Assembly (NCBI GenBank): GCA_017460175.1
Contig: JAFUBO010000004.1
Location: 23,592-87,591 of the forward strand
DNA: 64,000 nucleotides
Direction: 5' to 3'
Source of the DNA: Bacilli bacterium
GTDB lineage: Bacteria > Bacillota_I > Bacilli_A > RF39 > UBA660
Part shown: positions 6,021 through 51,304 of the stretch, in pieces
Layout of the letters: every line of letters starts with the position of its first letter
Numbering within the stretch: position 1 is the stretch's first letter
Position numbers and translations under genes: made by a program
The notes under the pieces: generated by a model
What the model was told of the DNA's origin: nothing
The model's input: only the letters and a program-made list of their open reading frames with translations
Databases searched by the model: none

Positions 6021-6449
6021 TTATTTTTGTAACATATTTAATAAATTAATTTTAAACATATCTTTTTCTGGATTTGTTTTAGAAATCATGACACCTTTAT
6101 ACGTAGATAATTCCGCTCTATGTCCTTCATCTAATATACCTTCTGGGGTAATATTAGTTAATAGAATAATCTTCTTATCATTATATACCGTATAATGTAA
6201 TGTTACAGGTCCATGAACTTTTTTAAATAATTCATCTGTTGGTAATAATAATTCATAACTTACAGTATTATTTTTTTCGTCTCTTTTAACTTCTTTACCT
6301 AAAAATGTTCCTTTACGTAATTCTGGGTAATAGTTAAAAGTTAATTTCTTATAAGCTAACATATTATATTTTCTTACAGATCTTTCTTTTTTTCTAAAAT
6401 CATTTTCATCAAGATATTCGAATATAAAACTATTTTTCATTATATTCAA
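6021..6449 (-). CDS. Hypothetical protein (142 aa)
   Basis: I see an ORF only. It sits next to the tRNA genes and I recognise no motif. Confidence 0.35.
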   Translation of the reverse strand: MNIMKNSFIFEYLDENDFRKKERSVRKYNMLAYKKLTFNYYPELRKGTFLGKEVKRDEKNNTVSYELLLPTDELFKKVHGPVTLHYTVYNDKKIILLTNITPEGILDEGHRAELSTYKGVMISKTNPEKDMFKINLLNMLQK

Positions 6450-6560
6450 CCCCCTAAATACTTGAAGCCTTCTGTACCTTCAATGTACACATATTATACT
6501 ACTTTTTCATTGATTTGTCAAACATTTTTTCGTAAAAAAAGATAAAAAAGTTTTTCTTTT

Positions 6561-28665: not shown

Positions 28666-29841
28666 ATGTTAGATGATTTTTTAGAAGATCTAGGTTATAG
28701 TAATGATCAAATTAAAATTGTTCATAATATATATCCCAATAAAATATATTCTGAATCTTCTTTGTTATTTAATTTTAAAAATTTATATTATTATCTAAAT
28801 AAAAATAACATTAGTAATGAAGATTTTATTAATATAACAATGACAATACCTAGTATTATTTCTCTTAGTTTAGAGGATATTAATAATAAAATTATTGAAT
28901 TAAATGATTTGGGTTTTAATAAAATTAATTCATTTAAATTAATATCAAAATATCCATATATCATTGAAATTAATAAATCAACATTAAAAAATAGTATCAA
29001 TAGTTTTAAAAGTATAGGTTTTAAGGAAAATGATATTATTACAGTTATTGTTAATAATCCTAGTTTACTTCAAGGTGATTTTTCTAATTATAAGTGTGTT
29101 ATAGATTATTTAATTAATTATGGATATTCTAATGATAATATTATGAGATTGATTAGAAAAATTCCTGAATTATTAAATTTGAATATTATTGATATTAAAA
29201 ATAAATACAAAAAGATTGAAGATTTTGGATTTGATCAAAATGTTGTCATTCAAATAACTAATATAATTCCTAGTATTTTGTTATCTGATAAAAATTTAAT
29301 TACTGATTATTTTGATTCTTTATTATCATTTGGATATACTAATATGGATATTATTGAGATAATTAAAAAAATTCCTATTATATTTAAAGATAGATATAGA
29401 GAACATTTAAATGATAGAATTAATAACTTTTCTAATTTAGGGATTAATAGTAAGGATATTATTTTGATGACTTCTAATAATCCATATTTATTTTTATATT
29501 CTGAAGACAATATTATTACTATATATAAGAATTTATTAAAATTAAAATATTCTAATGATGATATTAATAAAATATGTGTTAGTTTTCCTTTAATATTTGG
29601 ATATAATTGGAATTATACTCTTGATAAAATTATGTATTATAAAAAAATTGATTTAGATAAGTATTTAATTAGTAATAGTAAAATATTATTATTACCTATT
29701 GAACTAGTTCATTCAAGATACCTATATATTTCAAAATATAAAAATATAGATAATAATTATAAAGATTTATTTATTGATGATTGTAGTTTTTATAAATTAT
29801 ATAAAATTAAGAGAGATAGTTTGCTGAAAGGAGAATTTTAA
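28666..29841 (+). CDS. mTERF-like repeat protein (about 11 tandem ~30-aa helical repeats with L-G-[FY]-[ST]...I..I....P.[IL][LF] periodicity)
   Basis: The repeats 'LGYSNDQIKIVHNIYP', 'LGFNKINSFKLISKYPYII', 'IGFKENDIITVIVNNPSLL', 'YGYSNDNIMRLIRKIPELL', 'FGFDQNVVIQITNIIPSIL', 'FGYTNMDIIEIIKKIPIIF', 'LGINSKDIILMTSNNPYLF' and 'LKYSNDDINKICVSFPLIF' are read directly. A good RBS (GGTGGTGA) precedes the ATG. Confidence 0.5.
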   Translation: MLDDFLEDLGYSNDQIKIVHNIYPNKIYSESSLLFNFKNLYYYLNKNNISNEDFINITMTIPSIISLSLEDINNKIIELNDLGFNKINSFKLISKYPYIIEINKSTLKNSINSFKSIGFKENDIITVIVNNPSLLQGDFSNYKCVIDYLINYGYSNDNIMRLIRKIPELLNLNIIDIKNKYKKIEDFGFDQNVVIQITNIIPSILLSDKNLITDYFDSLLSFGYTNMDIIEIIKKIPIIFKDRYREHLNDRINNFSNLGINSKDIILMTSNNPYLFLYSEDNIITIYKNLLKLKYSNDDINKICVSFPLIFGYNWNYTLDKIMYYKKIDLDKYLISNSKILLLPIELVHSRYLYISKYKNIDNNYKDLFIDDCSFYKLYKIKRDSLLKGEF

Positions 29842-30224
29842 TGGATTTCTTAATTAGAAATGGATTTACTATTGAAGAAATTAAAATTATGATGGATACA
29901 AATGATTCTATTGAATATGTTAATGAAAAAAATATTAATTTATTAGTAAGTGTATTAAAGGAAAATAATTGTACTGATATAGATATTAAAAATATATTTA
30001 TTTGTAATCCCTTTTCTATTACTAATGATATTAATATTATTTGTAATTTAATAAATAAATTAAAGGAATTAAAAATAGATAATTTGAATTTATTATTTAC
30101 TAGTAATCCTTATATATTAAATATGAGTGACAAAGATTTAGAAAAATTATATAATAAGAAAAAAAGAGAAGGACTTAATAATAATGAAATAATTGATTTT
30201 ATTAATTATAATATTATTTTTTAG
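29841..30224 (+). CDS. Short mTERF-like repeat protein (3 repeats), translationally coupled (TAATG) to the preceding gene
   Basis: The same repeat type is present: 'NGFTIEEIKIMMDTN', 'NNCTDIDIKNIFICNPFSI' and 'LKIDNLNLLFTSNPYIL'. The reading frame differs from the upstream gene. Confidence 0.45.
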   Translation: MDFLIRNGFTIEEIKIMMDTNDSIEYVNEKNINLLVSVLKENNCTDIDIKNIFICNPFSITNDINIICNLINKLKELKIDNLNLLFTSNPYILNMSDKDLEKLYNKKKREGLNNNEIIDFINYNIIF

Positions 30225-32394: not shown

Positions 32395-33543
32395 TTATTC
32401 ATTCTCTTTTATAAATTTATTGAACTTTTTAATTTCGTCTGTATCTAATTCTGTTCTTGATAATTTTTCAATTAATTCTTTTTGTTCTCTTGTTAATCTA
32501 TTAGGGGTATAAACTTTAAAGATTAAGTACATATCACCTTTAATTTTTCTAAATCTATTATCTACACCTTTACCTTTTATTCTTTGTTTGTCTCCACTAT
32601 TAGTTCCAGCTGGAATGTTTATTTTTACATTACCATATAATGTAGGTATATCTTTCTTACAACCTAATATTGATTCAGTAAGTGTTAGTGGTACTTCTAG
32701 ATAAATGTCATTTTCGTCACGTTCAAAATATTTATGTCTTCCTACTACGAATTCAATATATAAATCACCATTTTCTCCACCATTTATACCAGGATTACCT
32801 TTACCACTGATTTTTTGTCTATCTCCTGTATTAATACCCTCTGGTATGTTAATAGTGATTTTTTTATTAATTTTAACTTTTCCTTTACCATTACATTCAG
32901 AACATTTTCTTTTGTATGTATGTCCAAGTCCTTTACAATCTGGACATGTTGTTTTTGACATAAATGATCCAAGTATTGTTCTTTGTTCATGAGTTACAGT
33001 TCCACTTCCATGACATGTATGGCATGTTTCTCTATCAAATCCACCATTACCATGACATTCGCTACACTCTTCTACTACATCTAAATTGAATTTTTTTTCT
33101 GTACCATAGATTGCTTCATCAAATGATAAGTCTAAACGCATTAGTATATCACTGCCACGAGTTGGACGATTAGTAGTACTTCCTCTTCCTCCAAAACCAG
33201 TAAAATTTGAAAAACCTCCACCAAAAATAGAATCAAATATATCTCCAAAATCAAAATCGGATGCATCAAAATTAGTATATGTTCCTCCACCAGGATATCC
33301 TGCAGTTGGTCCATTGCCACTTACTCCAGCATGTCCAAATTGATCATACATTTTTTTCTTATTTTCATCGCCTAATACTGAATATGCTTCTTGTACTTCT
33401 TTAAATTTATCTTCGGCTTTTGGATCGTCTTTGTTAAGGTCTGGGTGTAGTTCTTTTGCTTTTTTACGATAAGCACTTTTTATTTCAGCTTCTGTAGCAC
33501 CTTTTTTTATACCTAAAACCTCATAATAATCTCTTTTATCCAT
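32395..33543 (-). CDS. dnaJ: Chaperone DnaJ
   Basis: It has a J-domain with 'HPD', a G/F-rich linker and four CxxCxGxG zinc-finger repeats. It is 382 aa. Confidence 0.9.
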   Translation of the reverse strand: MDKRDYYEVLGIKKGATEAEIKSAYRKKAKELHPDLNKDDPKAEDKFKEVQEAYSVLGDENKKKMYDQFGHAGVSGNGPTAGYPGGGTYTNFDASDFDFGDIFDSIFGGGFSNFTGFGGRGSTTNRPTRGSDILMRLDLSFDEAIYGTEKKFNLDVVEECSECHGNGGFDRETCHTCHGSGTVTHEQRTILGSFMSKTTCPDCKGLGHTYKRKCSECNGKGKVKINKKITINIPEGINTGDRQKISGKGNPGINGGENGDLYIEFVVGRHKYFERDENDIYLEVPLTLTESILGCKKDIPTLYGNVKINIPAGTNSGDKQRIKGKGVDNRFRKIKGDMYLIFKVYTPNRLTREQKELIEKLSRTELDTDEIKKFNKFIKENE

Positions 33544-33547
33544 TTAA

Positions 33548-35362
33548 TCACATCTTTCTTTCATTCTTTTTTGTTAGAACCTTAAATTCTTCTATTGTTT
33601 TATCAAACATCTTAATAGCATTTTCATACACTTTTTTATTTGTCATATCTACTCCTGCTATTTTTAATGTATCTATTGGATTATAGAAATTACCACTTTC
33701 TAACATTTTTAAATAATTAGAAACTGAATTTTCTTCATTGTTTAATATACGAGTAACTATATCACAAGCAGCGCATAAGCTAGTTGCATATTTATATACA
33801 TAGAAATTGTAGTAGAAATGTGGAATTCTTTCCCATTCATATTTAATTTCATCATCTACTACTACACTATCACCAAAATATAATTTATTTAATTCTAAAT
33901 ATTTATCACTTAATTTATCTGAAGTTATAACATCATCATTTTCTACTAAATCATACGCATATTTTTCAAATTCTTCAAACATTACTTGACGATAAATAGT
34001 AGATTTAAATAATTCCATTAAATGATTTAGTGCAGCCATTTTTTCATTATCATCATTACTATTATTTATTAAATAGTATGCAAGTAATAATTCATTTGTA
34101 GTTGAAGCTACTTCTGCTACAAATATTGGATAGTCTCCATATTGATATGGATTATTATTTCTTGTATAAAAACTATGCATAGAGTGACCCAATTCATGAA
34201 TAAGAGTTGATACATCATCTAATCTTTCTTGATAATTTAATAATAGATAAGGATATGTATCAAAACATCCTCCTGAGTAAGCACCTCCTCTTTTATTTTT
34301 ATTAGGATATATATCTATCCATTTTTCAGTAAATGCTTTTTCTAAGTCTTTAGTATATTTTTTACCTAATATGGAAGTCGCTTTAAATACTAAATCTTTT
34401 GCTTCTTCAAATGTATATTTTTTATCATAATCTTTTATTAAATCTGTATATACATCATACATATGCATTTCATCTAAACCTAAAATATCTTTCTTTAAAT
34501 TAAAATACTTTTGATATACATCTAAATTATTATGAATAGTATTTACTAAAGTATTATATATATCTATATTTAATTCATCTTTATATAATTCTTTTTCAAA
34601 TACACTTTCATATCCTCTTAATTTAGTAAGAGCTACATTTTCTTTTATATGCCCATTTAAGCATGATGATATTGTATTTTTATATTGTTTATAACCAGCA
34701 TATAATGCTTTAAATGCTTCTATTCTTACTCTTCTATCTTTACTTTTAATATAAATTGAGTAATTTGTATCATTTAATTCAACATCATTATCATTTTCAT
34801 CTTTTATATTACCTAGTGTCATATCAGAATCTGTTAAATAACTATAGGTTGTTTCATCATTATCAAAAGCTTTAGATAGTTTTGATAATATTTTTTCTTC
34901 ATCATCGCTTAAAGTATATTTCTTATATCTATATATTTTTTCAATATATCTTTTGAATTCTTCTAATTCTTTTTCTTCTTTTAGATATTTATCTATAATT
35001 TCTTTTTCTACTTTTAATATTTCTGGAGTTAGAAAATATGAATTTTTAATAGCCAAATCATATAAATTAAGTATTTTACTATTTAATTCTTGATTTTCAT
35101 TATTTGAGATATCTTCATCACATAACATATGTGTATATGAATATAGTTTTTCTATTCTTCTTGATATTTCTATATCGTCTTTAATTACAGATAATAATGT
35201 TTTAGAACTATCCATTACATGATTTTCATATTTTTTAAATCTTTCTATTAATTTTTTTGTTTCTTCATAGAAAGTATTAAACTCATCTAAATTTTTAAAT
35301 ATTTTGGTTAGATCCCATTTATATTCATCATTGATTTCTTCTCTTGTTTTTATAGTACTCAT
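33548..35362 (-). CDS. pepF: Oligoendopeptidase F (M3B)
   Basis: The 'HELGHSMHS' HExxH zinc motif is present in a 604-aa protein. It lies between dnaK and dnaJ. Confidence 0.85.
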   Translation of the reverse strand: MSTIKTREEINDEYKWDLTKIFKNLDEFNTFYEETKKLIERFKKYENHVMDSSKTLLSVIKDDIEISRRIEKLYSYTHMLCDEDISNNENQELNSKILNLYDLAIKNSYFLTPEILKVEKEIIDKYLKEEKELEEFKRYIEKIYRYKKYTLSDDEEKILSKLSKAFDNDETTYSYLTDSDMTLGNIKDENDNDVELNDTNYSIYIKSKDRRVRIEAFKALYAGYKQYKNTISSCLNGHIKENVALTKLRGYESVFEKELYKDELNIDIYNTLVNTIHNNLDVYQKYFNLKKDILGLDEMHMYDVYTDLIKDYDKKYTFEEAKDLVFKATSILGKKYTKDLEKAFTEKWIDIYPNKNKRGGAYSGGCFDTYPYLLLNYQERLDDVSTLIHELGHSMHSFYTRNNNPYQYGDYPIFVAEVASTTNELLLAYYLINNSNDDNEKMAALNHLMELFKSTIYRQVMFEEFEKYAYDLVENDDVITSDKLSDKYLELNKLYFGDSVVVDDEIKYEWERIPHFYYNFYVYKYATSLCAACDIVTRILNNEENSVSNYLKMLESGNFYNPIDTLKIAGVDMTNKKVYENAIKMFDKTIEEFKVLTKKNERKM

Positions 35363-35413
35363 AGTAATCCTTTCATAAAAGTAAGAAGTTCTAAATGGAA
35401 CTTCTACTTTTTA

Positions 35414-37237
<1,824 letters not shown>

Positions 37238-37253
37238 TTATTATCTCCTTTTC

Positions 37254-37811
37254 TTATTTTTGATTTATTTTTACTGATGCTGGACGAATTACTCTATCCT
37301 TTAACTTGTAACCTTTCAATAATACTTCTAGAACTATATCATCATTTTTTGATGAATCATTTTCTACTAAAAGTGCTTGTTCTTGATTAGGATCAAATAT
37401 TTGTCCAACACGATTTATTTCTTCTACTCCGTATTTCTTTAAAATATCATATAAATTCTTATGAATCATTTTAAATCCTACTAAGTATTTTTTTAATTCA
37501 TCACTTAAATCCTCTTCCTTATTAATAGCTCTTTCAAAATTATCAATAACTGGTAGAATTTCAGTAATAATACTTTGATTTGCATATTTTAATAAATTTT
37601 CGACTTCTTCATCTTTACGTCTTCTATAATTAATTAATTCTGCTTGAGAAAGTTTTACTTTTTCTAATAAACTTTTATTTTCTTCTGTTAAAGTATTTAT
37701 TTCGTTTTCTAGTTTTAACATTTCTTCATTTAATTTTGTGTCTTGTTCTAATTCTTTTGTTTCTTCTAGTAATTCTACATTTTCTTTTTCTTCTTCTTTT
37801 TTCTTTCTCAT
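37254..37811 (-). CDS. grpE: Nucleotide exchange factor GrpE
   Basis: This 185-aa protein has a coiled-coil N-terminus. Its C-terminal beta-domain pattern ('RRRKDEE', 'G.Q.FDPN.H.A') is GrpE-like. Confidence 0.9.
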   Translation of the reverse strand: MRKKKEEEKENVELLEETKELEQDTKLNEEMLKLENEINTLTEENKSLLEKVKLSQAELINYRRRKDEEVENLLKYANQSIITEILPVIDNFERAINKEEDLSDELKKYLVGFKMIHKNLYDILKKYGVEEINRVGQIFDPNQEQALLVENDSSKNDDIVLEVLLKGYKLKDRVIRPASVKINQK

Positions 37812-37816
37812 AAAGC

Positions 37817-38806
37817 CTACCTTTCAATATTCTCTTTCATATATTCTAATAGTCCAACAACACGATCATATTCCATTCTTTTTGGACCAATTATAGCGAT
37901 TGTACCTTCTTCATTACCTTTTTTAAATTTAGTCTGAATTACAGTCATATCACTATCTATATGATTTTCATTTCCAATATAAACTTTTATGTTATTATCA
38001 TCGTCTTCTTCAATATTTTTTAGTAATTGTTTGTCTTCTAATTTATTAAATACTTCTTTTATTTTATTTACATTTGAAGAAAACTCAGGTTGTTCTAACA
38101 TTTTTGTCTTTCCCATAATATTGACTTCTTGATTAGTGAAATCAGTAAATACATTATAGAAAGCATTATATAATTGTTCATGTTGTTTTACATATTTACC
38201 TATAATAGGTTTTATTTCAAACTCTAATTTAGATACTATATCATCTATTGGAGTTCCTGAGATCAAGTTATTAATCAATCCAACTGTTTTTCGTATTTCA
38301 TCTAAAGAAACATCTTTAAGTCTAATATTTTTGTGTTCTACATGTCCTTTATCTGTAACAATGATAACAGTCATATTTTCATCATCAATAGGAATTACTT
38401 CTATTTGTTTAAGAAGATTCTCATGAGATTTGCTTCCTAGCACTACTGTAGTGTAGTTCATCATATCAGATATTACTTGAAGACTTTTAGTAATAACATC
38501 TGATAGAGCTAGTTGTTGATTTTTGAAGACAATTTGTAATTTTAACATATCTTCTGCATTCATCTTTTTTAATTCCATTAAGTGATCTACATAATAACGA
38601 TATCCTGCCTCACTAGGAATTCTTCCTGAAGATGTATGAGTTTTTTCTAATAGTCCTAGTTTTTCAAGTTCTCCCATTTCATTTCGTACAGTAGCGCTTG
38701 AGCAATTGAGTTCCCTCGAAATTACTTTTGAGCCTACTGGAATCGGTTCTTTGATATACTTTTCAACTATTAGTTTAAGTATTTTTTCTTGTCTTTCGGT
38801 TGGCAT
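37817..38806 (-). CDS. hrcA: Heat-inducible transcription repressor HrcA
   Basis: The N-terminal winged-helix region 'RQEKILKLIVEKYIKEPIPVGSKVIS' is present. It is 329 aa and sits upstream of grpE-dnaK. CIRCE elements lie upstream. Confidence 0.9.
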   Translation of the reverse strand: MPTERQEKILKLIVEKYIKEPIPVGSKVISRELNCSSATVRNEMGELEKLGLLEKTHTSSGRIPSEAGYRYYVDHLMELKKMNAEDMLKLQIVFKNQQLALSDVITKSLQVISDMMNYTTVVLGSKSHENLLKQIEVIPIDDENMTVIIVTDKGHVEHKNIRLKDVSLDEIRKTVGLINNLISGTPIDDIVSKLEFEIKPIIGKYVKQHEQLYNAFYNVFTDFTNQEVNIMGKTKMLEQPEFSSNVNKIKEVFNKLEDKQLLKNIEEDDDNNIKVYIGNENHIDSDMTVIQTKFKKGNEEGTIAIIGPKRMEYDRVVGLLEYMKENIER

Positions 38807-38817
38807 AACTTACCTCC

Positions 38818-38844
38818 TTAGCACTGCTTTTATTCAAGTGCTAA
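38818..38844. promoter_or_regulatory. CIRCE operator (HrcA binding site) TTAGCACTG-N9-AAGTGCTAA
   Basis: It matches the established consensus TTAGCACTC-N9-GAGTGCTAA with 2 mismatches. It lies 12 nt upstream of the hrcA start. Confidence 0.7.
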
Positions 38845-38863: not shown

Positions 38864-38890
38864 TTAGCACTTGTCAATAGTTTGTGCTAA
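38864..38890. promoter_or_regulatory. Second, more degenerate CIRCE-like inverted repeat TTAGCACTT-N9-TTGTGCTAA
   Basis: It is read directly 20 nt upstream of the first CIRCE, with 3 mismatches to consensus. Confidence 0.55.
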
Positions 38891-38932: not shown

Positions 38933-40786
38933 TTAATCTATTGGTATTAATTTAAATCTTGCTGTTGTTGAATTGTTTTTACCTACTATAATCATATTTT
39001 TTCTTGTAGATACACTATTATTTGTTTGAGGTAGTATATATCCTGTATTACTAGATGATGTTGGAACTACTGTTTCAATAATATATGTATTATTACCTAC
39101 AGGAATTATATGCCATATTTGTTTTTCATTTCTATTTTGATTATCAAATGAATTTGAAGCAATGAGTGTAGTATTTGTTTTATTTAAATCACTTAATTCC
39201 AAAGCTTTATAACCTGAAAGATTTAATATTTTATATTCATTATCATGTCCTTGATTAATATTAGAATCTGTAATTTTTTCAATTGACCATTTTTGTTTAA
39301 CAGAACCGTTAAGTGTACTAATATCAATTGAAGTAGAATTTGTATTATTAGTTATAACTTTATTTTCTGAAAGAACAGGTAATATATAATAATTTCCTAT
39401 ATCTGGTAGTGTTTGTGTTGCGTCTGGTTGATAGGCAGATACTCTGATACCTGTTTTTGTTTCAGTTTCTGAAATTGTTGTATTTTGCCCTAAATTTTTA
39501 ATATATTGCCAATTTACTCCATCATTTGATACTTGAATAGTATTATCATTATAATCAATACCTGCAACTGGTTTATGGAATATTGCAATTTCATCTAAAT
39601 CGTGATTTTCTTGTAGGTCTAATGTTGCACATTTTGAACTACCTTCTGTAGAATATGTTAAAGTTTTTCCTGACGCTACATTAATTCCTTGTTTTACAGC
39701 AGTTATTTTTTGCCATGTAATATTATCTATTGTTGGTGTTGAACCACTTGTACAATCTTTAATATATCTAATATTGTTAAATTTTTCATTTTTTCTAGGT
39801 AATGATTGATTATTTTCAGTTTTCGATAAAACTTTTGTTATTTTTGCTTTACCATTAGCAAGATTAACTCCAGGAAGCATTATTCCATTAACAAAATAAT
39901 ATGTTTTTACTAAGTTTCCGTATGTAAAGTTACCATCTTCTATATTAGTTCTTTCATAATATTGATAGCATGGCGATGAAGTAGTTATTCCTTTATCTAA
40001 TCCATATGCTCCTGCATATCCTGCAATATATGAAGCACCACCAGTATTTGCTTTTGCACTAGGATAAAATCCATCTCCTCCATTGTTTGTCGCTAAAGGA
40101 GAAGGAATATTAACTCCTAAATGTTGTTCATCTCTATGAACATCACTTGGTTCATAGTCTTTAGTAATTCCAATTAAAGTTCCATTTGAATAATTATTGG
40201 TGTCTGTTGCTGGGGTTAATCCATAGTCTATATTTGGTTCTTGTATATTAATTGAACCACCATATGATTTCATTTTATCGTTATATCCATATAGTGTACC
40301 ACCAGCAGAATCACTTTCACTTCCACCACCGGCAGCAACCATTATTCTTGATTCATATGATATTTCGCTATTATAGGCACCTTTATATATTCTTACATCT
40401 GTTTCTCTTCCAGAACCACTGGTCTTATGTTTTGGTACATAAAAATATAATGTTTCTCCTTCCTGTAATTCAATTATTCCAGATGTATAGGCACCCCATC
40501 CTCCAGCTGCACCACCTTGGCTACCCCATAGTTCTATTTTATACCATCCTGTTTCTGGTACTATGTATTCTTGGGCAGTAGGCATATCTCCTTCTGTTGC
40601 TTGAAATACTGTATCTGTTTTACTAAATCTATTTAATTCGTCTTCTATACTCTTAGATAAACTACTTGTATTTGATCTAGTTTGAGCCATAGTTGCCATT
40701 AAAATCGCAACTATCATTATTCCCATAATTGCTAAACCATATATTAATGTAGATATCGCAAACCCTTTATTATTCATCTTTCTCAT
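38933..40786 (-). CDS. Surface protein: pilin-like hydrophobic N-terminus + Gly-rich (ALK/LTK GRD-like) domain + discoidin-like region + C-terminal ricin-B beta-trefoil lectin
   Basis: This 617-aa protein starts 'MRKMNNKGFAISTLIYGLAIMGIMIVAIL'. 'GWYKIELWGSQGGAAGGWGAYTSGIIELQEGETLYFYVPKH...VAAGGGSESDSAGGTLYGY' resembles the Gly_rich fold. The C-terminal ~130 aa carry QxW-type motifs ('QKWSIEKI', 'QIWHIIPV'). Confidence 0.5.
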   Translation of the reverse strand: MRKMNNKGFAISTLIYGLAIMGIMIVAILMATMAQTRSNTSSLSKSIEDELNRFSKTDTVFQATEGDMPTAQEYIVPETGWYKIELWGSQGGAAGGWGAYTSGIIELQEGETLYFYVPKHKTSGSGRETDVRIYKGAYNSEISYESRIMVAAGGGSESDSAGGTLYGYNDKMKSYGGSINIQEPNIDYGLTPATDTNNYSNGTLIGITKDYEPSDVHRDEQHLGVNIPSPLATNNGGDGFYPSAKANTGGASYIAGYAGAYGLDKGITTSSPCYQYYERTNIEDGNFTYGNLVKTYYFVNGIMLPGVNLANGKAKITKVLSKTENNQSLPRKNEKFNNIRYIKDCTSGSTPTIDNITWQKITAVKQGINVASGKTLTYSTEGSSKCATLDLQENHDLDEIAIFHKPVAGIDYNDNTIQVSNDGVNWQYIKNLGQNTTISETETKTGIRVSAYQPDATQTLPDIGNYYILPVLSENKVITNNTNSTSIDISTLNGSVKQKWSIEKITDSNINQGHDNEYKILNLSGYKALELSDLNKTNTTLIASNSFDNQNRNEKQIWHIIPVGNNTYIIETVVPTSSSNTGYILPQTNNSVSTRKNMIIVGKNNSTTARFKLIPID

Positions 40787-46770: not shown

Positions 46771-46871
46771 ATCTTATCACTCCTATGTTTCCACATATAT
46801 TATTATATCGAAGGAAGTGTAAATTTTCAATTGACTTTACTTTATTTTACATTTTTTCTTTATATATCAAC

Positions 46872-46900
46872 AAAAAAAGTATTTACTGGATACTTTTTTT
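46872..46900. terminator. Bidirectional-capable terminator at the end of the Cpn60-like gene (AGTAT-ttactgg-ATACT between A7 and T7)
   Basis: The hairpin is read directly. Confidence 0.45.
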
Positions 46901-48432
46901 TACATTATATTATTATTTATTTCTTCTTTCAAGTTTATAACTAAAGATGACGTAGAAAGTAAAATTGAAGATATACTCAATGCATTTTTAAATGCACATA
47001 TAATAACATCAGCAGGATCAATTATATTACTATTATTTATAGATACATAATCATTTATTTTATAATCATAAACTAAATTATATTTATTTTTAATAATATT
47101 ATTCTTTATATCTTTATAATCTAATCCTAAATTCTCCATAACCTTTTCAAATGGCTTTTCTAAAGATTTTTTAAGTATCATAGATGCTGTATTATCAGAC
47201 TCAAGTATCTCACTTACTTTCAAGTAAGTTATTCCTTCTCCAATAACAATTCCATTTTTTGCAGTTTCTAGTGCACATATTGCATCTTCAAAACGCATTA
47301 ATTTTTCTCTTCTTTCAGATTTAGTAGTACCACCTACATAAATAGTAGTAATTCCTTCTTCTAATTTAGAAATACGACTAGCAATAAACTCTTTTTCATA
47401 ATCACTATTACATGTTTTTAGTTCTTCTTTTAGTTTATTAATTAATTCTATACTATTCTTAGAATCTAGTAATACTATTTCATCATTTTTTATTATTACA
47501 TTATCAATTATGCCTAAGTCACTAAATGTAGTTTCTTCATAATCAATATTCTTAATATTAGATTTTGAAAGGAATGATATATCTTCTTCAATTTTATCTC
47601 TATGGGATGAGTATTCTTCTAATTCTACTACAAAAATATTTTTATGATTAAAGTAATATACTAATACTTCATTTTTAATTTCTTCATTCATAGCTTCTAC
47701 TAGTATTAATAAATTCTTATCATTTTCTAATGCATCATTTACTATATCACTGATTGATTCTAAATTGTCAAAATATCCTTTTAATACTAATACATTAACA
47801 TCTTTTAACTCAATAGTTTTATTTTTTGTAAAATACATACTTGATATATTATTAATTGGAATATTATAACCTTTTTTATTAATACTATATGTTTCTTCAT
47901 TATTTGATTCTTCTAGTTTAATTGAATATTTACTTTTAACTTTTCCAAATATTTCTGTAGTAAGTTTTCCTATTTCATAGTCATTTGATGAAGTAGTTGC
48001 AATACTTAATAAATCATCATCTGTTGGTTCTTGTTTTAATTTATTAATTTCTTCTACTACTTTATTCATACAAGATAATAATTCGTTTTTTAGTACTATT
48101 TTATTTTTACCATTATTTATTTCTTCAAGTCCTAAATTAAAAATGCTTTGTAAAAGTACTAAAGTAGTTGTTGTTCCATCTCCTACTAATTCATTTGTTT
48201 TTAGTGATGCTTCTTTTACTATTTCTAGTACTGTATTAATTTTTTCATCTTCACTTTCTATGTTACTAGCTATTGTTACACCATCGTTTGTGATAAATGG
48301 TGTTACCTCACTATTATTAATTAATATATTATTCCCAGTTGGACCTAAAGTACTTGATACTGTATCACATAATAAATTAACTGCATCACTCATTACTTTT
48401 TTTAATTCTTCTCCGCTTATTACTTTTTTCAT
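46900..48432 (-). CDS. Highly divergent GroEL/Cpn60-family protein (full three-domain architecture, no Gly-Met tail, no adjacent groES)
   Basis: By-eye alignment to GroEL is co-linear. 'LGPTGNNILI' aligns with LGPKGRNVVL and 'FITNDGVTIA' with TITKDGVSVA. 'VGDGTTTTLVL' matches AGDGTTTATVL (ATP-binding). '...GITTIYVGGTTKSE' matches GGVAVIKVGAATEVE and 'IIDPADVI' matches ILDPTKVT. It is 510 aa. It overlaps the upstream gene by 4 nt (ATGA). Confidence 0.6.
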   Translation of the reverse strand: MKKVISGEELKKVMSDAVNLLCDTVSSTLGPTGNNILINNSEVTPFITNDGVTIASNIESEDEKINTVLEIVKEASLKTNELVGDGTTTTLVLLQSIFNLGLEEINNGKNKIVLKNELLSCMNKVVEEINKLKQEPTDDDLLSIATTSSNDYEIGKLTTEIFGKVKSKYSIKLEESNNEETYSINKKGYNIPINNISSMYFTKNKTIELKDVNVLVLKGYFDNLESISDIVNDALENDKNLLILVEAMNEEIKNEVLVYYFNHKNIFVVELEEYSSHRDKIEEDISFLSKSNIKNIDYEETTFSDLGIIDNVIIKNDEIVLLDSKNSIELINKLKEELKTCNSDYEKEFIASRISKLEEGITTIYVGGTTKSERREKLMRFEDAICALETAKNGIVIGEGITYLKVSEILESDNTASMILKKSLEKPFEKVMENLGLDYKDIKNNIIKNKYNLVYDYKINDYVSINNSNIIDPADVIICAFKNALSISSILLSTSSLVINLKEEINNNIM

Positions 48433-49175
48433 AATTCATCCTCCACTTCAAGCATATTTTTCCAATACTTCTTAGGCATAAAGTTTTGTCTACATCTTTT
48501 GTTTTCTCTTTCTTTAATACCTATTGTTTTATAGAATGTTTTCCATAAATCTTCTATTAAGTCTTCATTATCTTTTTCTAGATTCAAACTTATTACTTCT
48601 TCATCAGTTAAATAAATTACTTTTTCTTTATCATATATAGCATATATTCCTCTTTTAGTATCATGAATTATCCAGTTATCACTCATTAATCTTTTACTAA
48701 AATGACTAGCAAGTATACCTATAACATTATTATTAGACTCAAATTTAGCATAATAAAAATTATTTTTCATTTTACTGAATCTTAAAAAACCTTTTAATTT
48801 ATGTGCTTCTCCCCTAACGTATTTAGATATTTGAATTGATTCATTTACACAATCTATATTTCTTCTTCCAAATACTGTTTTTCCATATTTAAAATAACTT
48901 TTTAAGAAATTATAAATAATAATTTCTTTATTTTTATTATCTGATAAGAATACATTATATATACAATATAATGCTTCTCTACTAATTTTATTTTTTAGAA
49001 GTTTAATGTTTTCTTGTTCATTTTCTACTTTTAAATATATTTCAGTATCAAATAAACCTAAGTCATATGAATTTATTAGTTTTATATCATCAGGTGTTAT
49101 TTTATTTTTAAATAATTCTACTACTAAAGCAATAAAACTAATAAATCCTCCATCATAAATATATATCTTATTCAT
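48429..49175 (-). CDS. DUF4130-like 'probable DNA metabolism protein' partner of the radical SAM enzyme (TIGR03915-like, assignment by context and size)
   Basis: This 248-aa protein overlaps the rSAM gene by 8 nt upstream and the Cpn60-like gene by 4 nt downstream. I cannot verify family motifs by eye. Confidence 0.45.
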   Translation of the reverse strand: MNKIYIYDGGFISFIALVVELFKNKITPDDIKLINSYDLGLFDTEIYLKVENEQENIKLLKNKISREALYCIYNVFLSDNKNKEIIIYNFLKSYFKYGKTVFGRRNIDCVNESIQISKYVRGEAHKLKGFLRFSKMKNNFYYAKFESNNNVIGILASHFSKRLMSDNWIIHDTKRGIYAIYDKEKVIYLTDEEVISLNLEKDNEDLIEDLWKTFYKTIGIKERENKRCRQNFMPKKYWKNMLEVEDEL

Positions 49176-50388
49176 TGAATAGACTTAATTGAACTCCTTT
49201 ATTAGATACTACTTTATCTTCTAAAACTAAATTAGCTTCTATTATTTTTTTATTAAATATGTTTGTATCAGTAAAATATTTCCCATTACAAGTAATAAAG
49301 TATTTAGCACGTTTTAATGATATATTCATTTTCTTTAAATCATTAAACTCTAATTTATAATACTTTCTATTGGAAACTATCTTTTTAGCGTTTCTAGGAC
49401 CAATTCCTGGGATTTTAAGTAAATCATAGTAGCTCGCAGTATTAATCTCTTTAGGATACTCTTCTAAGTGTCTTAGGGCCCAATCTGCTTTAGGATCTAT
49501 TAAGATATTAAAATTAGGATTATCATGTGATAATAAATCATCTACTTTGTAGTTATAAAATCTAAGTAACCAATCTGCTTGGTATAAACGATTTTCACGA
49601 ACCAGTGGAGGATTCTTAATAGCAGGTAATAGTTTATCTTTGTTAACTGGAATATAAGCTGAATAAAATACTCTTTTTAAAGAATAATTATTATATAAGT
49701 TTTCACTCTTACCAAGAATATCTAAATCAGTTTCACCTGTTGCTCCTACTATCATTTGAGTAGATTGCCCTGCAGGTGTGAAACTTCTACTTCTATTTAC
49801 TTTAATAGTTTTCATGATATTAGTAACTTTATCTTCATTTTTATTAGGAGCAAGTAATTTTAATCCATTACTTGTTGGAAGTTCTATATTAGCACTAACT
49901 CTATCTGCGAGAGTTCCAAGTTTTTTTAACAATACTTCACTAGCACCAGGTATTGCTTTAACATGAATATAACCATTAAAATGATACTTCTTACGTAGTA
50001 AATATAAAGTTTCAATTAATTTCTCCATAGTATAATTAGGAGACTTAATAATACCACTAGATAAAAATAATCCTTCAATATAGTTTCGTTTATAAAAATT
50101 CATTGTAATTTCACATATTTCAACCGGAGTAAATATAGCTCTTTTTACATCATTACTCTTTCTATTTATACAATACTTACAATCAAATATACATGAATTA
50201 GTCATAAGTATTTTTAAAAGTGAGATACAACGGCCATCACTAGCAAAAGAATGGCAAATACCTGAATACGCTGCATTACCAGTACCATTAGTGTTTGACC
50301 TAGTGCTACCACTTGAAGAACATGATGCATCATATTTAGCTGAATCACTTAGTATAATTAACTTCTCTTTTATTGTCATATTATTCAC
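49168..50388 (-). CDS. Radical SAM protein of the putative DNA modification/repair class (TIGR03916-like; SplB/photoproduct-lyase-related)
   Basis: The N-terminal CxxxCxxC 'CIFDCKYC' is preceded by an aromatic/Ser-rich stretch. A C-terminal helix-hairpin-helix 'LLKIPGIGPRNAKKIV' is present. It is 406 aa. Confidence 0.65.
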   Translation of the reverse strand: MNNMTIKEKLIILSDSAKYDASCSSSGSTRSNTNGTGNAAYSGICHSFASDGRCISLLKILMTNSCIFDCKYCINRKSNDVKRAIFTPVEICEITMNFYKRNYIEGLFLSSGIIKSPNYTMEKLIETLYLLRKKYHFNGYIHVKAIPGASEVLLKKLGTLADRVSANIELPTSNGLKLLAPNKNEDKVTNIMKTIKVNRSRSFTPAGQSTQMIVGATGETDLDILGKSENLYNNYSLKRVFYSAYIPVNKDKLLPAIKNPPLVRENRLYQADWLLRFYNYKVDDLLSHDNPNFNILIDPKADWALRHLEEYPKEINTASYYDLLKIPGIGPRNAKKIVSNRKYYKLEFNDLKKMNISLKRAKYFITCNGKYFTDTNIFNKKIIEANLVLEDKVVSNKGVQLSLFNE

Positions 50389-50435
50389 CTAAATATATTA
50401 TACATCTGTTCGATAATATATTTCAAGAATATTTT

Positions 50436-50449
50436 CGAAAAAATGTTCG
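50436..50449. promoter_or_regulatory. Candidate LexA (Cheo) box CGAAAAAATGTTCG upstream of the rSAM operon
   Basis: It matches the Firmicutes LexA consensus CGAACRNRYGTTCG at 12/14 positions (half-sites GAAA / GTTC). It lies ~48 nt upstream of the rSAM start codon. Confidence 0.4.
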
Positions 50450-50452
50450 AAG

Positions 50453-51304
50453 TTATTCTATCATTTTATTATGTTCATATTTATCTAATTCTTTAAGACT
50501 CTTATTGGGTGTTGGTAAATCTTCAGGCATAGTACCACCTATATCAGTAATTGCCTTTCTAACCTTTTTGCCAACTTCATAATGAGTATTACAAGATAAT
50601 CCTTCACTTTTCTTTTTTTGTTTAGTAAGCAAATCTTCTGTTTGAGTTATTCTAAATATATTGGCACCTAATTCTACACTACCCATATTATCTAGTATTT
50701 CTTCTCTATATCTCAATCTTTTTCTTTTAGCTATATCATCAGCAGTTTCTCCATTATATAAACCTTTATATCCGGCATTAGTAAATTTATCAAAGTTTTT
50801 TACTCCTTTTAAACTAGCTATTTTATTCAAAGATTTATTACTTTCTTTTACTTGTTTTCTTCTATATATCCTTTTCTCATATTCGCTCATTAAATCATAA
50901 GATTTTTCTAATAATTCTTGGTGTCGTGTTTGAATTGCAAAATATGTTTGAGCAAGTGCAATTACTTTTTTTCTAGAATCACCATTCATCGCAATTAAGT
51001 AACAAGCATAGCGTGATAGTTTATAATCATCTACTTTTCTTTTGCCACCTTTACCTATGTTTATCAATTTCCCAACCCCGGGAAAATGATCATTGATATC
51101 ATAACCACTATTCTTACAGGTTTCTTTAGCACTATCAATAGTATTGGAAAATCTTTCCCATTTTTTATAGTCTAAAACACCCATCAATTCACGCGCTAAC
51201 CAGTATTCTTTTCTCTCCTCATCAATATGTTTAATACTTTCAAATATAGTATTATTTATTTCTTTTAAATCCATAAAATTCCTCCTTGAGGAAAAACTAT
51301 ACAA
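50453..51304 (-). CDS. dinD: DNA-damage-inducible protein D
   Basis: It is co-linear with E. coli DinD. '(F)WLARELMGVLDYKKWERF' aligns with FWSARELAPLLDYRDWRNF. 'LSRYACYLIAMNGD' aligns with LSRYACYLVVQNGD and 'AQTYFAIQTRHQEL' with GQTYFAIQTRRQEL. 'GANIFRITQTED' and the C-terminal 'IGGTMPEDLPTP' also match. Confidence 0.8.
   Translation of the reverse strand: MYSFSSRRNFMDLKEINNTIFESIKHIDEERKEYWLARELMGVLDYKKWERFSNTIDSAKETCKNSGYDINDHFPGVGKLINIGKGGKRKVDDYKLSRYACYLIAMNGDSRKKVIALAQTYFAIQTRHQELLEKSYDLMSEYEKRIYRRKQVKESNKSLNKIASLKGVKNFDKFTNAGYKGLYNGETADDIAKRKRLRYREEILDNMGSVELGANIFRITQTEDLLTKQKKKSEGLSCNTHYEVGKKVRKAITDIGGTMPEDLPTPNKSLKELDKYEHNKMIE

Follow-up and report, generated by a model that had tools for sequence, protein, structure and literature searches.

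The window analyzed here, a 64-kb stretch (64,000 nucleotides) of contig JAFUBO010000004.1 from a Bacilli bacterium, encodes at 46900..48432 on the minus strand a real, strongly diverged group I chaperonin (Cpn60/GroEL-like). The gene, which starts with ATG and specifies 510 aa, is the third and last member of a cassette in which it follows a radical-SAM gene (TIGR03916) and a DUF4130 gene (TIGR03915), and its family is a distinct Cpn60 subfamily marked by an invariable, previously unreported genomic partnership. The reading that we favor, to which we give a little better than an even chance, is that a specialized group I chaperonin is a fixed part of a DNA-damage-inducible module consisting of the radical-SAM protein, the DUF4130 protein, and the Cpn60-like ATPase. 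Dedicated Hsp60 paralogs are known, but to our knowledge none lies in a DNA-repair operon or under a LexA-type operator, and we found no paper that ties a GroEL paralog to radical-SAM, DUF4130, or TIGR03915/TIGR03916 genes.

Identity and Fold of the Chaperonin

The protein is identical to GenBank MBQ9019146.1, which is named "hypothetical protein IJ097_02390 [Bacilli bacterium]". An earlier note on this DNA had recognized the ORF as GroEL-like from the segments LGPTGNNILI, FITNDGVTIA, GDGTTTTLVL, GITTIYVGGTTKSE, and IIDPADVI, all five of which are found in the translation of 46900..48432, and had put the identity to GroEL by eye at ~25–30%. Pairwise alignment with E. coli GroEL (a reference sequence identical to that of PDB 4pkn) gives 142/507, or 28%. 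The note had also proposed profile searches, a phylogeny, and structure prediction as checks. In the first of these, Pfam Cpn60_TCP1 (PF00118) matches the 510-aa protein significantly (E 2.2e-32, 112.8 bits, cutoff 34.3), and residues 23–498 of the protein align with profile positions 3–486 of 490, which places it in the superfamily. The NCBIfam GroEL models align with it end to end at 246–291 bits, and none reaches its curated cutoff (352–582 bits). The loosest GroEL subfamily model gives 290.6 bits against a cutoff of 352, and the GroEL equivalog model TIGR02348 gives 270.7 bits against 582.1.

The closest solved structure is T. thermophilus Cpn60 (4v4o, E 3e-67). An AlphaFold2 model built from 50 relatives (pLDDT 90.4, pTM 0.81) was matched by Foldseek to the GroEL subunits in 4v4o, 8wuw, and 5opx with TM scores of 0.87–0.88, and these matches are to full-length GroEL subunits in the GroES-bound conformation. 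The protein therefore has the same three-domain fold as the E. coli and T. thermophilus proteins, with which it is co-linear over its full length. On the basis of the profile matches and the GroEL-type fold, we assign it to group I. The earlier note had left room for a group-II-like ring, and that suggestion does not hold: thermosome and CCT models reach only 31–52 bits (cutoffs 400–710) over the N-terminal 130–190 residues, the thermosome and CCT structure chains match only the N-terminal third, and both the alignment and the AlphaFold2 model show a protein that is shorter than GroEL and lacks an apical insertion or group II helical protrusion. The protein ends ~10 residues past the column of E. 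coli D523. As the earlier note had stated, there is no GGM tail, and this extends to the family: GGM or MGG occurs in the last 40 residues of 0/123 non-redundant relatives, and the tail past the D523 column has a median length of 10 aa as compared to 25 in E. coli.

The Three-Gene Cassette

Two genes on the same strand precede the chaperonin gene. The nearer (48429..49175, minus strand) encodes a 248-aa DUF4130/TIGR03915 "putative DNA repair protein" (PF13566, E 3e-47; TIGR03915, 232.3 bits, cutoff 112.25). The farther (49168..50379, minus strand) encodes a protein with Pfam Radical_SAM and HHH_3 matches that scores 615.1 bits with NCBIfam TIGR03916 (cutoff 343.5); its likely start is the ATG at 50379 (403 aa, the ENA call), and the mechanical ORF begins at GTG 50388. 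These are bona fide members of the TIGR03916/TIGR03915 pair, adjacent and co-oriented, and they overlap by 8 nt. The stop codon of the DUF4130 gene and the start codon of the chaperonin gene share the sequence ATGA at 48429–48432 (a 4-nt overlap, read from the sequence), and a Shine–Dalgarno sequence, GGAGG (48440..48444, minus strand), lies 7 nt ahead of the chaperonin ATG within the 3′ end of the DUF4130 gene.

We collected 68 related loci encoding a family member from ENA, Logan, JGI, and GTDB contigs, with chaperonins 31–83% identical to the window protein. The DUF4130 gene lies directly upstream of the chaperonin gene in 66/68, and the other two loci have <60 nt of upstream DNA. The radical-SAM gene is also visible in 60 loci; the other six end short or give a partial DUF4130 match. 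Tblastn matches to DUF4130 and to the chaperonin are 0–5 nt apart in 56 of the 57 loci that could be scored and overlap by 4 nt in the remaining one, and the DUF4130 ORFs are about 245–265 aa long. The gene is thus the translationally coupled third member of a TIGR03916–TIGR03915–Cpn60 operon and not the orphan that the earlier note took it for. Outside the cassette the gene order is variable: the downstream neighbor belongs to 29 different families in 42 loci, and the upstream neighbor to 24 in 40 loci. Within it, the three proteins diverge together: across pairwise identities of 41 non-redundant cassettes, r = 0.925 for Cpn60 versus DUF4130 and 0.896 for Cpn60 versus radical SAM. The chaperonin diverges at ~2.2 times the radical-SAM rate, roughly equal to that of DUF4130.

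No groES gene accompanies the cassette. As the earlier note had observed, none flanks the gene; with the GroES proteins of E. coli and B. subtilis as tblastn queries, the best E in the whole window was 1.8. Tblastn found none in any of the 66 cassette loci either, though the same search did detect GroES beside canonical GroELs (L011, L060, L062, L067, and L068). Neither GroES nor a second GroEL was found by tblastn in the 64-kb window plus ~8 kb beyond it (locus L143 included), a search that covered ~72 kb of the 637–777 kb contig. The earlier note's term "paralog" would imply a canonical groESL elsewhere in the genome.

The radical-SAM/DUF4130 pair is a putative DNA-repair enzyme pair. One published proposal (PMC3765255) is that it works together with UDG domains on bases that are damaged or modified, and AlphaFold 3 modeling yields a tight heterodimer with a narrow channel that fits single-stranded nucleic acid (bioRxiv 10.64898/2026.08.19.745780). 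The system as described has two genes, whereas the window family has a Cpn60-like third gene and no UDG domain; in the window, a fusion to the UDG-like domain (TIGR03914) was not found, the DUF4130 protein matching PF13566 only. By the TIGRFAM description, such a fusion is present in about 40% of TIGR03916/TIGR03915 systems. Two-gene cassettes without the chaperonin are present in Clostridia (Pusillibacter and Lachnospira), and we therefore regard the chaperonin as a lineage-specific addition. None of the three cassette proteins has a PADLOC match, and an anti-phage defense system was rejected on this ground.

Extent and Divergence of the Family

A 50-member profile was searched against 1.84 billion representative sequences. 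The family emerges as ~58 clusters (50% identity) at 396–718 bits, mostly 490–526 aa long, above a generic GroEL plateau at <380 bits. In a neighbor-joining tree of 136 sequences, the phylogenetic check that the earlier note had proposed, the 123 family members form one clade, and all GroES-linked sequences fall outside it. Identity within the family is 29–75%. Its members come from metagenomes or metagenome-assembled genomes only (rumen, chicken gut, and human gut) under the names "Bacilli bacterium", "uncultured Erysipelotrichaceae RUG14253", "Firmicutes bacterium", and "Candidatus Caccenecus avistercoris", and a scan of genome contigs gave, apart from a Legionella GroEL, only one relative (uncultured Erysipelotrichaceae RUG14253). 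Divergence among the cassette-linked members is greatest in L082 (8380–9828; 31% identity, 482 aa, on a contig with 24% GC), which has 50 C-terminal residues that can no longer be aligned to GroEL models. Matches without the cassette, at 25–32% identity, are either ordinary GroELs with GroES in front or unrelated GroES-less Cpn60s, many of which sit on phage contigs.

Low identity to GroEL and a metagenome-only membership are what one might expect of a groEL duplicate that is decaying into a relic or pseudogene, or of a phage-derived GroEL on a mobile element, and both the frequency of GroES-less GroELs on phage contigs and one split copy of the gene fit that explanation as well. We nevertheless consider it very improbable. 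Intact ORFs of 480–540 aa occur in >300 sequences with an invariant catalytic core; family members are absent from the viral contigs of IMG/VR (maximum 31% identity) and the plasmids of PLSDB (maximum 33%), which speaks against a phage or plasmid origin; and the lack of PADLOC matches also counts against it. The chaperonin of phage EL (6tmt) matches residues 5–193 only, in the N-terminal equatorial part, at 90 bits, and membership in the phage EL type is rejected on this score. The conservation pattern largely refutes a relic or mobile-element reading. The split copy itself, at L088 581–2093, is a chaperonin gene in two pieces behind DUF4130 and may be a frameshift or a pseudogene.

The phage-contig Cpn60s form a population of their own. 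Many are represented among the IMG/VR loci L092–L142 and in cluster P0309; they are 20–36% identical to the query and unrelated to the cassette family. Most lack a tblastn-detectable GroES, and weak GroES-like matches are seen in 5/51 loci. P0309 is a 67-member Cpn60 cluster on ~160-kb contigs that could be jumbo phage or plasmid.

GroEL is normally among the slowest-evolving proteins. Eight members of the cassette family, the window protein among them, score 244–366 bits with TIGR02348 against the 582-bit equivalog cutoff, whereas a control GroEL that is GroES-linked and comes from a contig with 26% GC scores 582.5 bits. When compared with Geobacillus DnaK, the window's DnaK reaches 826 bits, and its ParE and ParC proteins clear their equivalog cutoffs. 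Because these proteins and the AT-rich control score normally, the divergence is specific to the chaperonin gene, and AT bias or a fast-evolving genome is ruled out as its source. The earlier note's view that the protein is specialized rather than housekeeping is favored by this low equivalog score and by the ~2.2-fold faster divergence than that of the radical-SAM neighbor. Two family members exceed the loosest GroEL subfamily model. One of them, from Candidatus Caccenecus avistercoris, does so only just, and it is for this reason that PGAP names it "chaperonin GroEL". Both labels that the pipelines apply, "hypothetical protein" and "chaperonin GroEL", conceal the cassette association.

The PGAP label, together with the two members above the loosest model, raises the alternative that the gene encodes the sole housekeeping chaperonin of its host, a fast-evolving GroEL ortholog that has lost GroES and lies behind the radical-SAM genes by chance. 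In its favor are the fully conserved ATPase core, the low GC content of the uncultured Bacilli that serve as hosts, the lack of GroES and of a second GroEL in the ~72 kb searched, and the loss of GroES/EL in some Mollicutes. We judge this explanation unlikely, since the cassette linkage is kept across ~58 clusters although the flanks rearrange freely, and since the rate of divergence and the 29–75% identity within the family speak against it, as does the regulation described below. The host, moreover, is probably not a minimal mollicute. A GerA spore-germination gene is located on the same contig ~10 kb beyond the window start (L143 13516–14901), and with YlbD/E/F in the window it suggests that the host is probably a spore-former.

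Conserved and Altered Residues

Conservation was counted over the 123 non-redundant members, with positions given in E. coli GroEL numbering. G32, D52, G53, D87, G88, T89, D398, and G414 are invariant, and conservation is 97% or higher at T30, T90, T91, G416, and D495. The window protein has the nucleotide-binding and catalytic residues T30–P33, D52, D87–T91, D398, G414–G416, and D495, with the exception of G415, which is E. Thus the phosphate-binding and catalytic elements of GroEL (TLGP, D52, GDGTTT, D398, and D495) are shared, and the intact GDGTTT loop to which the earlier note had drawn attention is accompanied by D52 and D398 in a nucleotide pocket that has been kept. The hinge glycines G192 and G410 are invariant, G375 is present in 115/118 close members, and hydrophobic character is kept in the stem loop and in the N- and C-terminal strands that form the ring. 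The pocket also carries a signature of its own: K51N in 119/123 members and a change of G415 to E, S, A, or C in 107/123. Because the pocket deviates from canonical GroELs at K51, G415, and A480, ATPase activity is plausible rather than proven.

The surfaces that contact GroES, substrate, and the second ring are altered. Y199 is replaced by N or L, L234 by S (94/123), and L259 by K or variable residues, and V264 is variable; retained are the aromatic pair Y203/F204, L237 (as I/V), and V263 (as L). The earlier note's structural check, which asked whether the apical hydrophobic residues are retained, gives a mixed picture: Y203/F204, L237, and V263 are kept, but Y199, L234, and L259 are replaced. 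R197 is I or T and E386 is K in the family, so the allosteric salt bridge R197–E386 is removed. Among the inter-ring contacts, conservation is lacking at R452, E461, S463, and V464, and all 123 members have a deletion of the E434 segment (of the K105–E434 pair). Finally, F44 is D or E. Taken together, these residues point to what would be an ATP-driven ring with an altered binding surface, independent of GroES and probably single.

The same pattern of loss and retention could also be produced by a neofunctionalized ring ATPase that does not fold proteins at all and instead remodels or unfolds proteins cross-linked to or stalled on DNA so that the radical-SAM enzyme gains access, or scaffolds the repair complex. 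Such an enzyme might be expected to lose the substrate/GroES residues, the cavity features represented by F44 and the GGM tail, and the salt bridge while keeping the ATPase residues, and it would make sense of the strict, probably stoichiometric co-expression with a radical-SAM enzyme that bears an HhH domain and a DUF4130 protein of RecJ-like fold. The predicted structure is, however, that of a plain GroEL subunit with no new domain, insertion, or obvious nucleic-acid-binding feature, and the role is without precedent. This possibility is compatible with the data, which do not separate it from a client-specific chaperone, and would be the more novel of the two; we rate it as quite unlikely.

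Promoter and Operator

The three-gene operon is served by a sigma-70-type promoter, TTGAAA-18-TATAAT (50397..50426, minus strand; 11/12 matches), and an equivalent −10 element occurs at the same position in related loci. The palindrome CGAACATTTTTTCG (50436..50449) borders the −35 hexamer on its upstream side and is one base off the Firmicutes LexA operator, or Cheo box, CGAAC-N4-GTTCG. It is the sole match to CGAACNNNNGTTCG with at most one mismatch in 64 kb, where 0.02 are expected by chance. The element is widespread in the family: a Cheo box with at most two mismatches is found within 100 nt of the radical-SAM start in 37/43 distinct upstream regions, compared with 17/5911 background windows from the same loci (0.3%; p about 6e-88). 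A second, half-conserved box, CGAACAGATGTATA (50399..50412, minus strand), overlaps the −10 hexamer and is presumably functional. A conserved half-box of this kind across the −10 hexamer is found in many related loci, and the string ATCGAACAGATGTATAAT recurs unchanged in L006, L008, L010, L013, L016, L020, and L056. Comparative genomics has predicted LexA-binding sites for the TIGR03916/TIGR03915 operons of Verrucomicrobia (PMC4951493), and the window pair appears to be under the same type of control.

The heat-shock operator CIRCE, in contrast, occurs at a different cluster. A scan of the 64 kb for CIRCE with at most three mismatches gave only two sites, at 38818–38844 and 38864–38890, arranged in tandem upstream of hrcA at the head of the hrcA-grpE-dnaK-pepF-dnaJ cluster (32395..38806, minus strand); none lies near the chaperonin operon. 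Nor was a strong promoter found within the final few hundred nucleotides of the DUF4130 gene. Given the Cheo box, the lack of CIRCE, and the lack of an internal promoter, the simplest reading is that the chaperonin gene closes an SOS-type operon and is not a heat-shock gene, and the cassette is probably switched on by DNA damage via LexA. The absence of CIRCE here, while hrcA has two, and the position of the LexA-type operator further favor the earlier note's view of a specialized protein. They also count against a sole housekeeping chaperonin, which should not be left with a LexA-type operator alone, lacking both a promoter of its own and CIRCE, while hrcA-dnaK keeps two CIRCE sites.

The operon may end in a weak intrinsic terminator. 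An AT-rich 11-bp hairpin with a U-run (46872..46900, minus strand) lies directly past the chaperonin stop and folds as RNA at −6.9 kcal/mol (z = −2.96 versus shuffles). A simple terminator scan missed it because it has no G–C pairs.

Proposed Role of the Chaperonin

In the module that we favor, DNA damage would lead to cleavage of LexA, and the single cassette promoter would fire. The three proteins would then be made together, with the chaperonin translationally coupled to DUF4130. The chaperonin would assemble into a GroEL-type ring, probably a single one, that binds and hydrolyzes ATP, and, without GroES, it might fold, hold, or assemble the Fe–S radical-SAM/DUF4130 complex or stay on as a subunit of it. 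The complex would then act on damaged or modified DNA. Ring formation, ring number, independence from GroES, control by LexA, and the radical-SAM/DUF4130 proteins as client or partner are all features that we infer.

Several observations weigh against this proposal. Membership in an operon does not by itself establish a client relationship, and it is from gene context that we infer contact of the chaperonin with the radical-SAM or DUF4130 protein; no DUF4130–Cpn60 fusion is present among eight long Cpn60 proteins inspected, and the long Cpn60 matches turned out to be tandem Cpn60s or an artificial fusion with HBV core. Conservation is lowest in the apical domain, at a column mean of 0.48 versus 0.62 for the equatorial domain, which is unlike the expectation for a rigid, specific docking surface, despite a family-specific pattern in helix H (E231, I233, S234, I237, and N238). 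K51N, the change at G415, and the replacement of A480 by aromatic or aliphatic residues are unlike every canonical GroEL. With regard to regulation, a recognizable Cheo box is missing in 6/43 promoters, and no lexA gene turned up in the window or among the loci fetched.

A stronger form of the proposal is that the family is an unrecognized chaperonin class, GroES-less and probably single-ring, that would be either an obligate, stoichiometric subunit of a radical-SAM DNA-repair complex induced by the SOS response or the machine that assembles it. We put this forward tentatively, as a possibility that falls short of an even chance. If true, no chaperonin before it would have been hard-wired into an operon of the DNA-damage response, and it would offer a handle on the chemistry of the widespread TIGR03916/TIGR03915 system. 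In one lineage, the radical-SAM/DUF4130 system would have recruited its own folding or assembly ATPase, which suggests that the complex is hard to fold or assemble, and co-expression of the chaperonin might render the radical-SAM enzyme tractable in vitro. A naturally GroES-independent, single-client ring would also be a compact model of chaperonin specialization.

Relative to GroEL/Cpn60 of E. coli and T. thermophilus, the window protein differs in its 28–30% identity, the lack of a groES partner, CIRCE/heat-shock control, and a GGM tail, the changes K51N and G415E, the replacement of Y199, L234, and L259, the loss of R197–E386 and the inter-ring contacts, and its location within a DNA-repair operon. 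Specialized GroEL paralogs with narrow, pathway-linked roles are known, among them chlamydial GroEL2/GroEL3, mycobacterial GroEL1/Cpn60.1, and the rhizobial nif-coregulated GroELs, the last being co-regulated with a specific enzyme system. The window protein, a possible paralog itself, shares with these GroES-less paralogs a diverged group I sequence, an altered C-terminus, and a probably lost or weakened dependence on GroES; however, none of the chlamydial, mycobacterial, or rhizobial proteins is known to be coupled into a radical-SAM/DNA-repair operon or to lie behind a LexA box. Membership in chlamydial GroEL2/3 is excluded by the NF038370/NF038369 models, with which the window protein scores 52.7 bits and its relatives no more than 117 (cutoff 600). 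The single-ring GroEL of phage EL (gp146), which is GroES-independent and without canonical inter-ring contacts, provides a functional analogy for the way in which a ring without a co-chaperonin could operate, but the window family is chromosomal and has an SOS operon context. HscA of the isc operon is an Hsp70 dedicated to one Fe–S client, the scaffold IscU. The HscA/HscB system is a conceptual analogue only, as it belongs to the Hsp70 rather than the Hsp60 class, works in another pathway, and is unrelated in sequence. E. coli GroEL/ES itself stabilizes the SOS proteins UmuC and DinB.

Neighboring Genes and Other Features of the Window

Upstream of the cassette is dinD (DNA-damage-inducible protein D, Bro-N; 50453..51304, minus strand), which scores 328.8 bits with NF008573 (cutoff 242) and matches the PADLOC defense candidate PDC-S13. 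It is a frequent but non-obligatory neighbor of the cassette (L008, L012, L013, L015, and L017), on one or both sides in several loci, and no Cheo box was found upstream of it in the window. On the other side, parE has a promoter of its own (TTGAAA-17-TATAAT, 46802–46830), and it is only in the species of the window that parE/parC come after the cassette. A functional tie between the cassette and these downstream genes is therefore rejected.

Elsewhere in the window, a second Cheo-like box, CAAACATTTTTTCG (6519–6532), lies ~70 nt upstream of a 142-aa ORF (6021..6449, minus strand) that has no Pfam match and may be a further SOS-regulated gene. At 28666–29841 on the plus strand is a gene for a 391-aa protein with an mTERF domain (PF02536, E 4e-35), a family that is mainly organellar or eukaryotic. 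It sits in the only plus-strand island of the window, and the 28001–30000 stretch around it has the highest AT content of the window (17.6% GC). The minus-strand gene at 38933–40786 encodes 617 aa; the N-terminus is hydrophobic and prepilin-like, and there is a glycine-rich domain of the ALK/LTK type (PF12810). Finally, a 1592-aa protein encoded at 14062–18840 (minus strand) contains seven Listeria–Bacteroides repeats and a C-terminal tyrosine-phosphatase domain.

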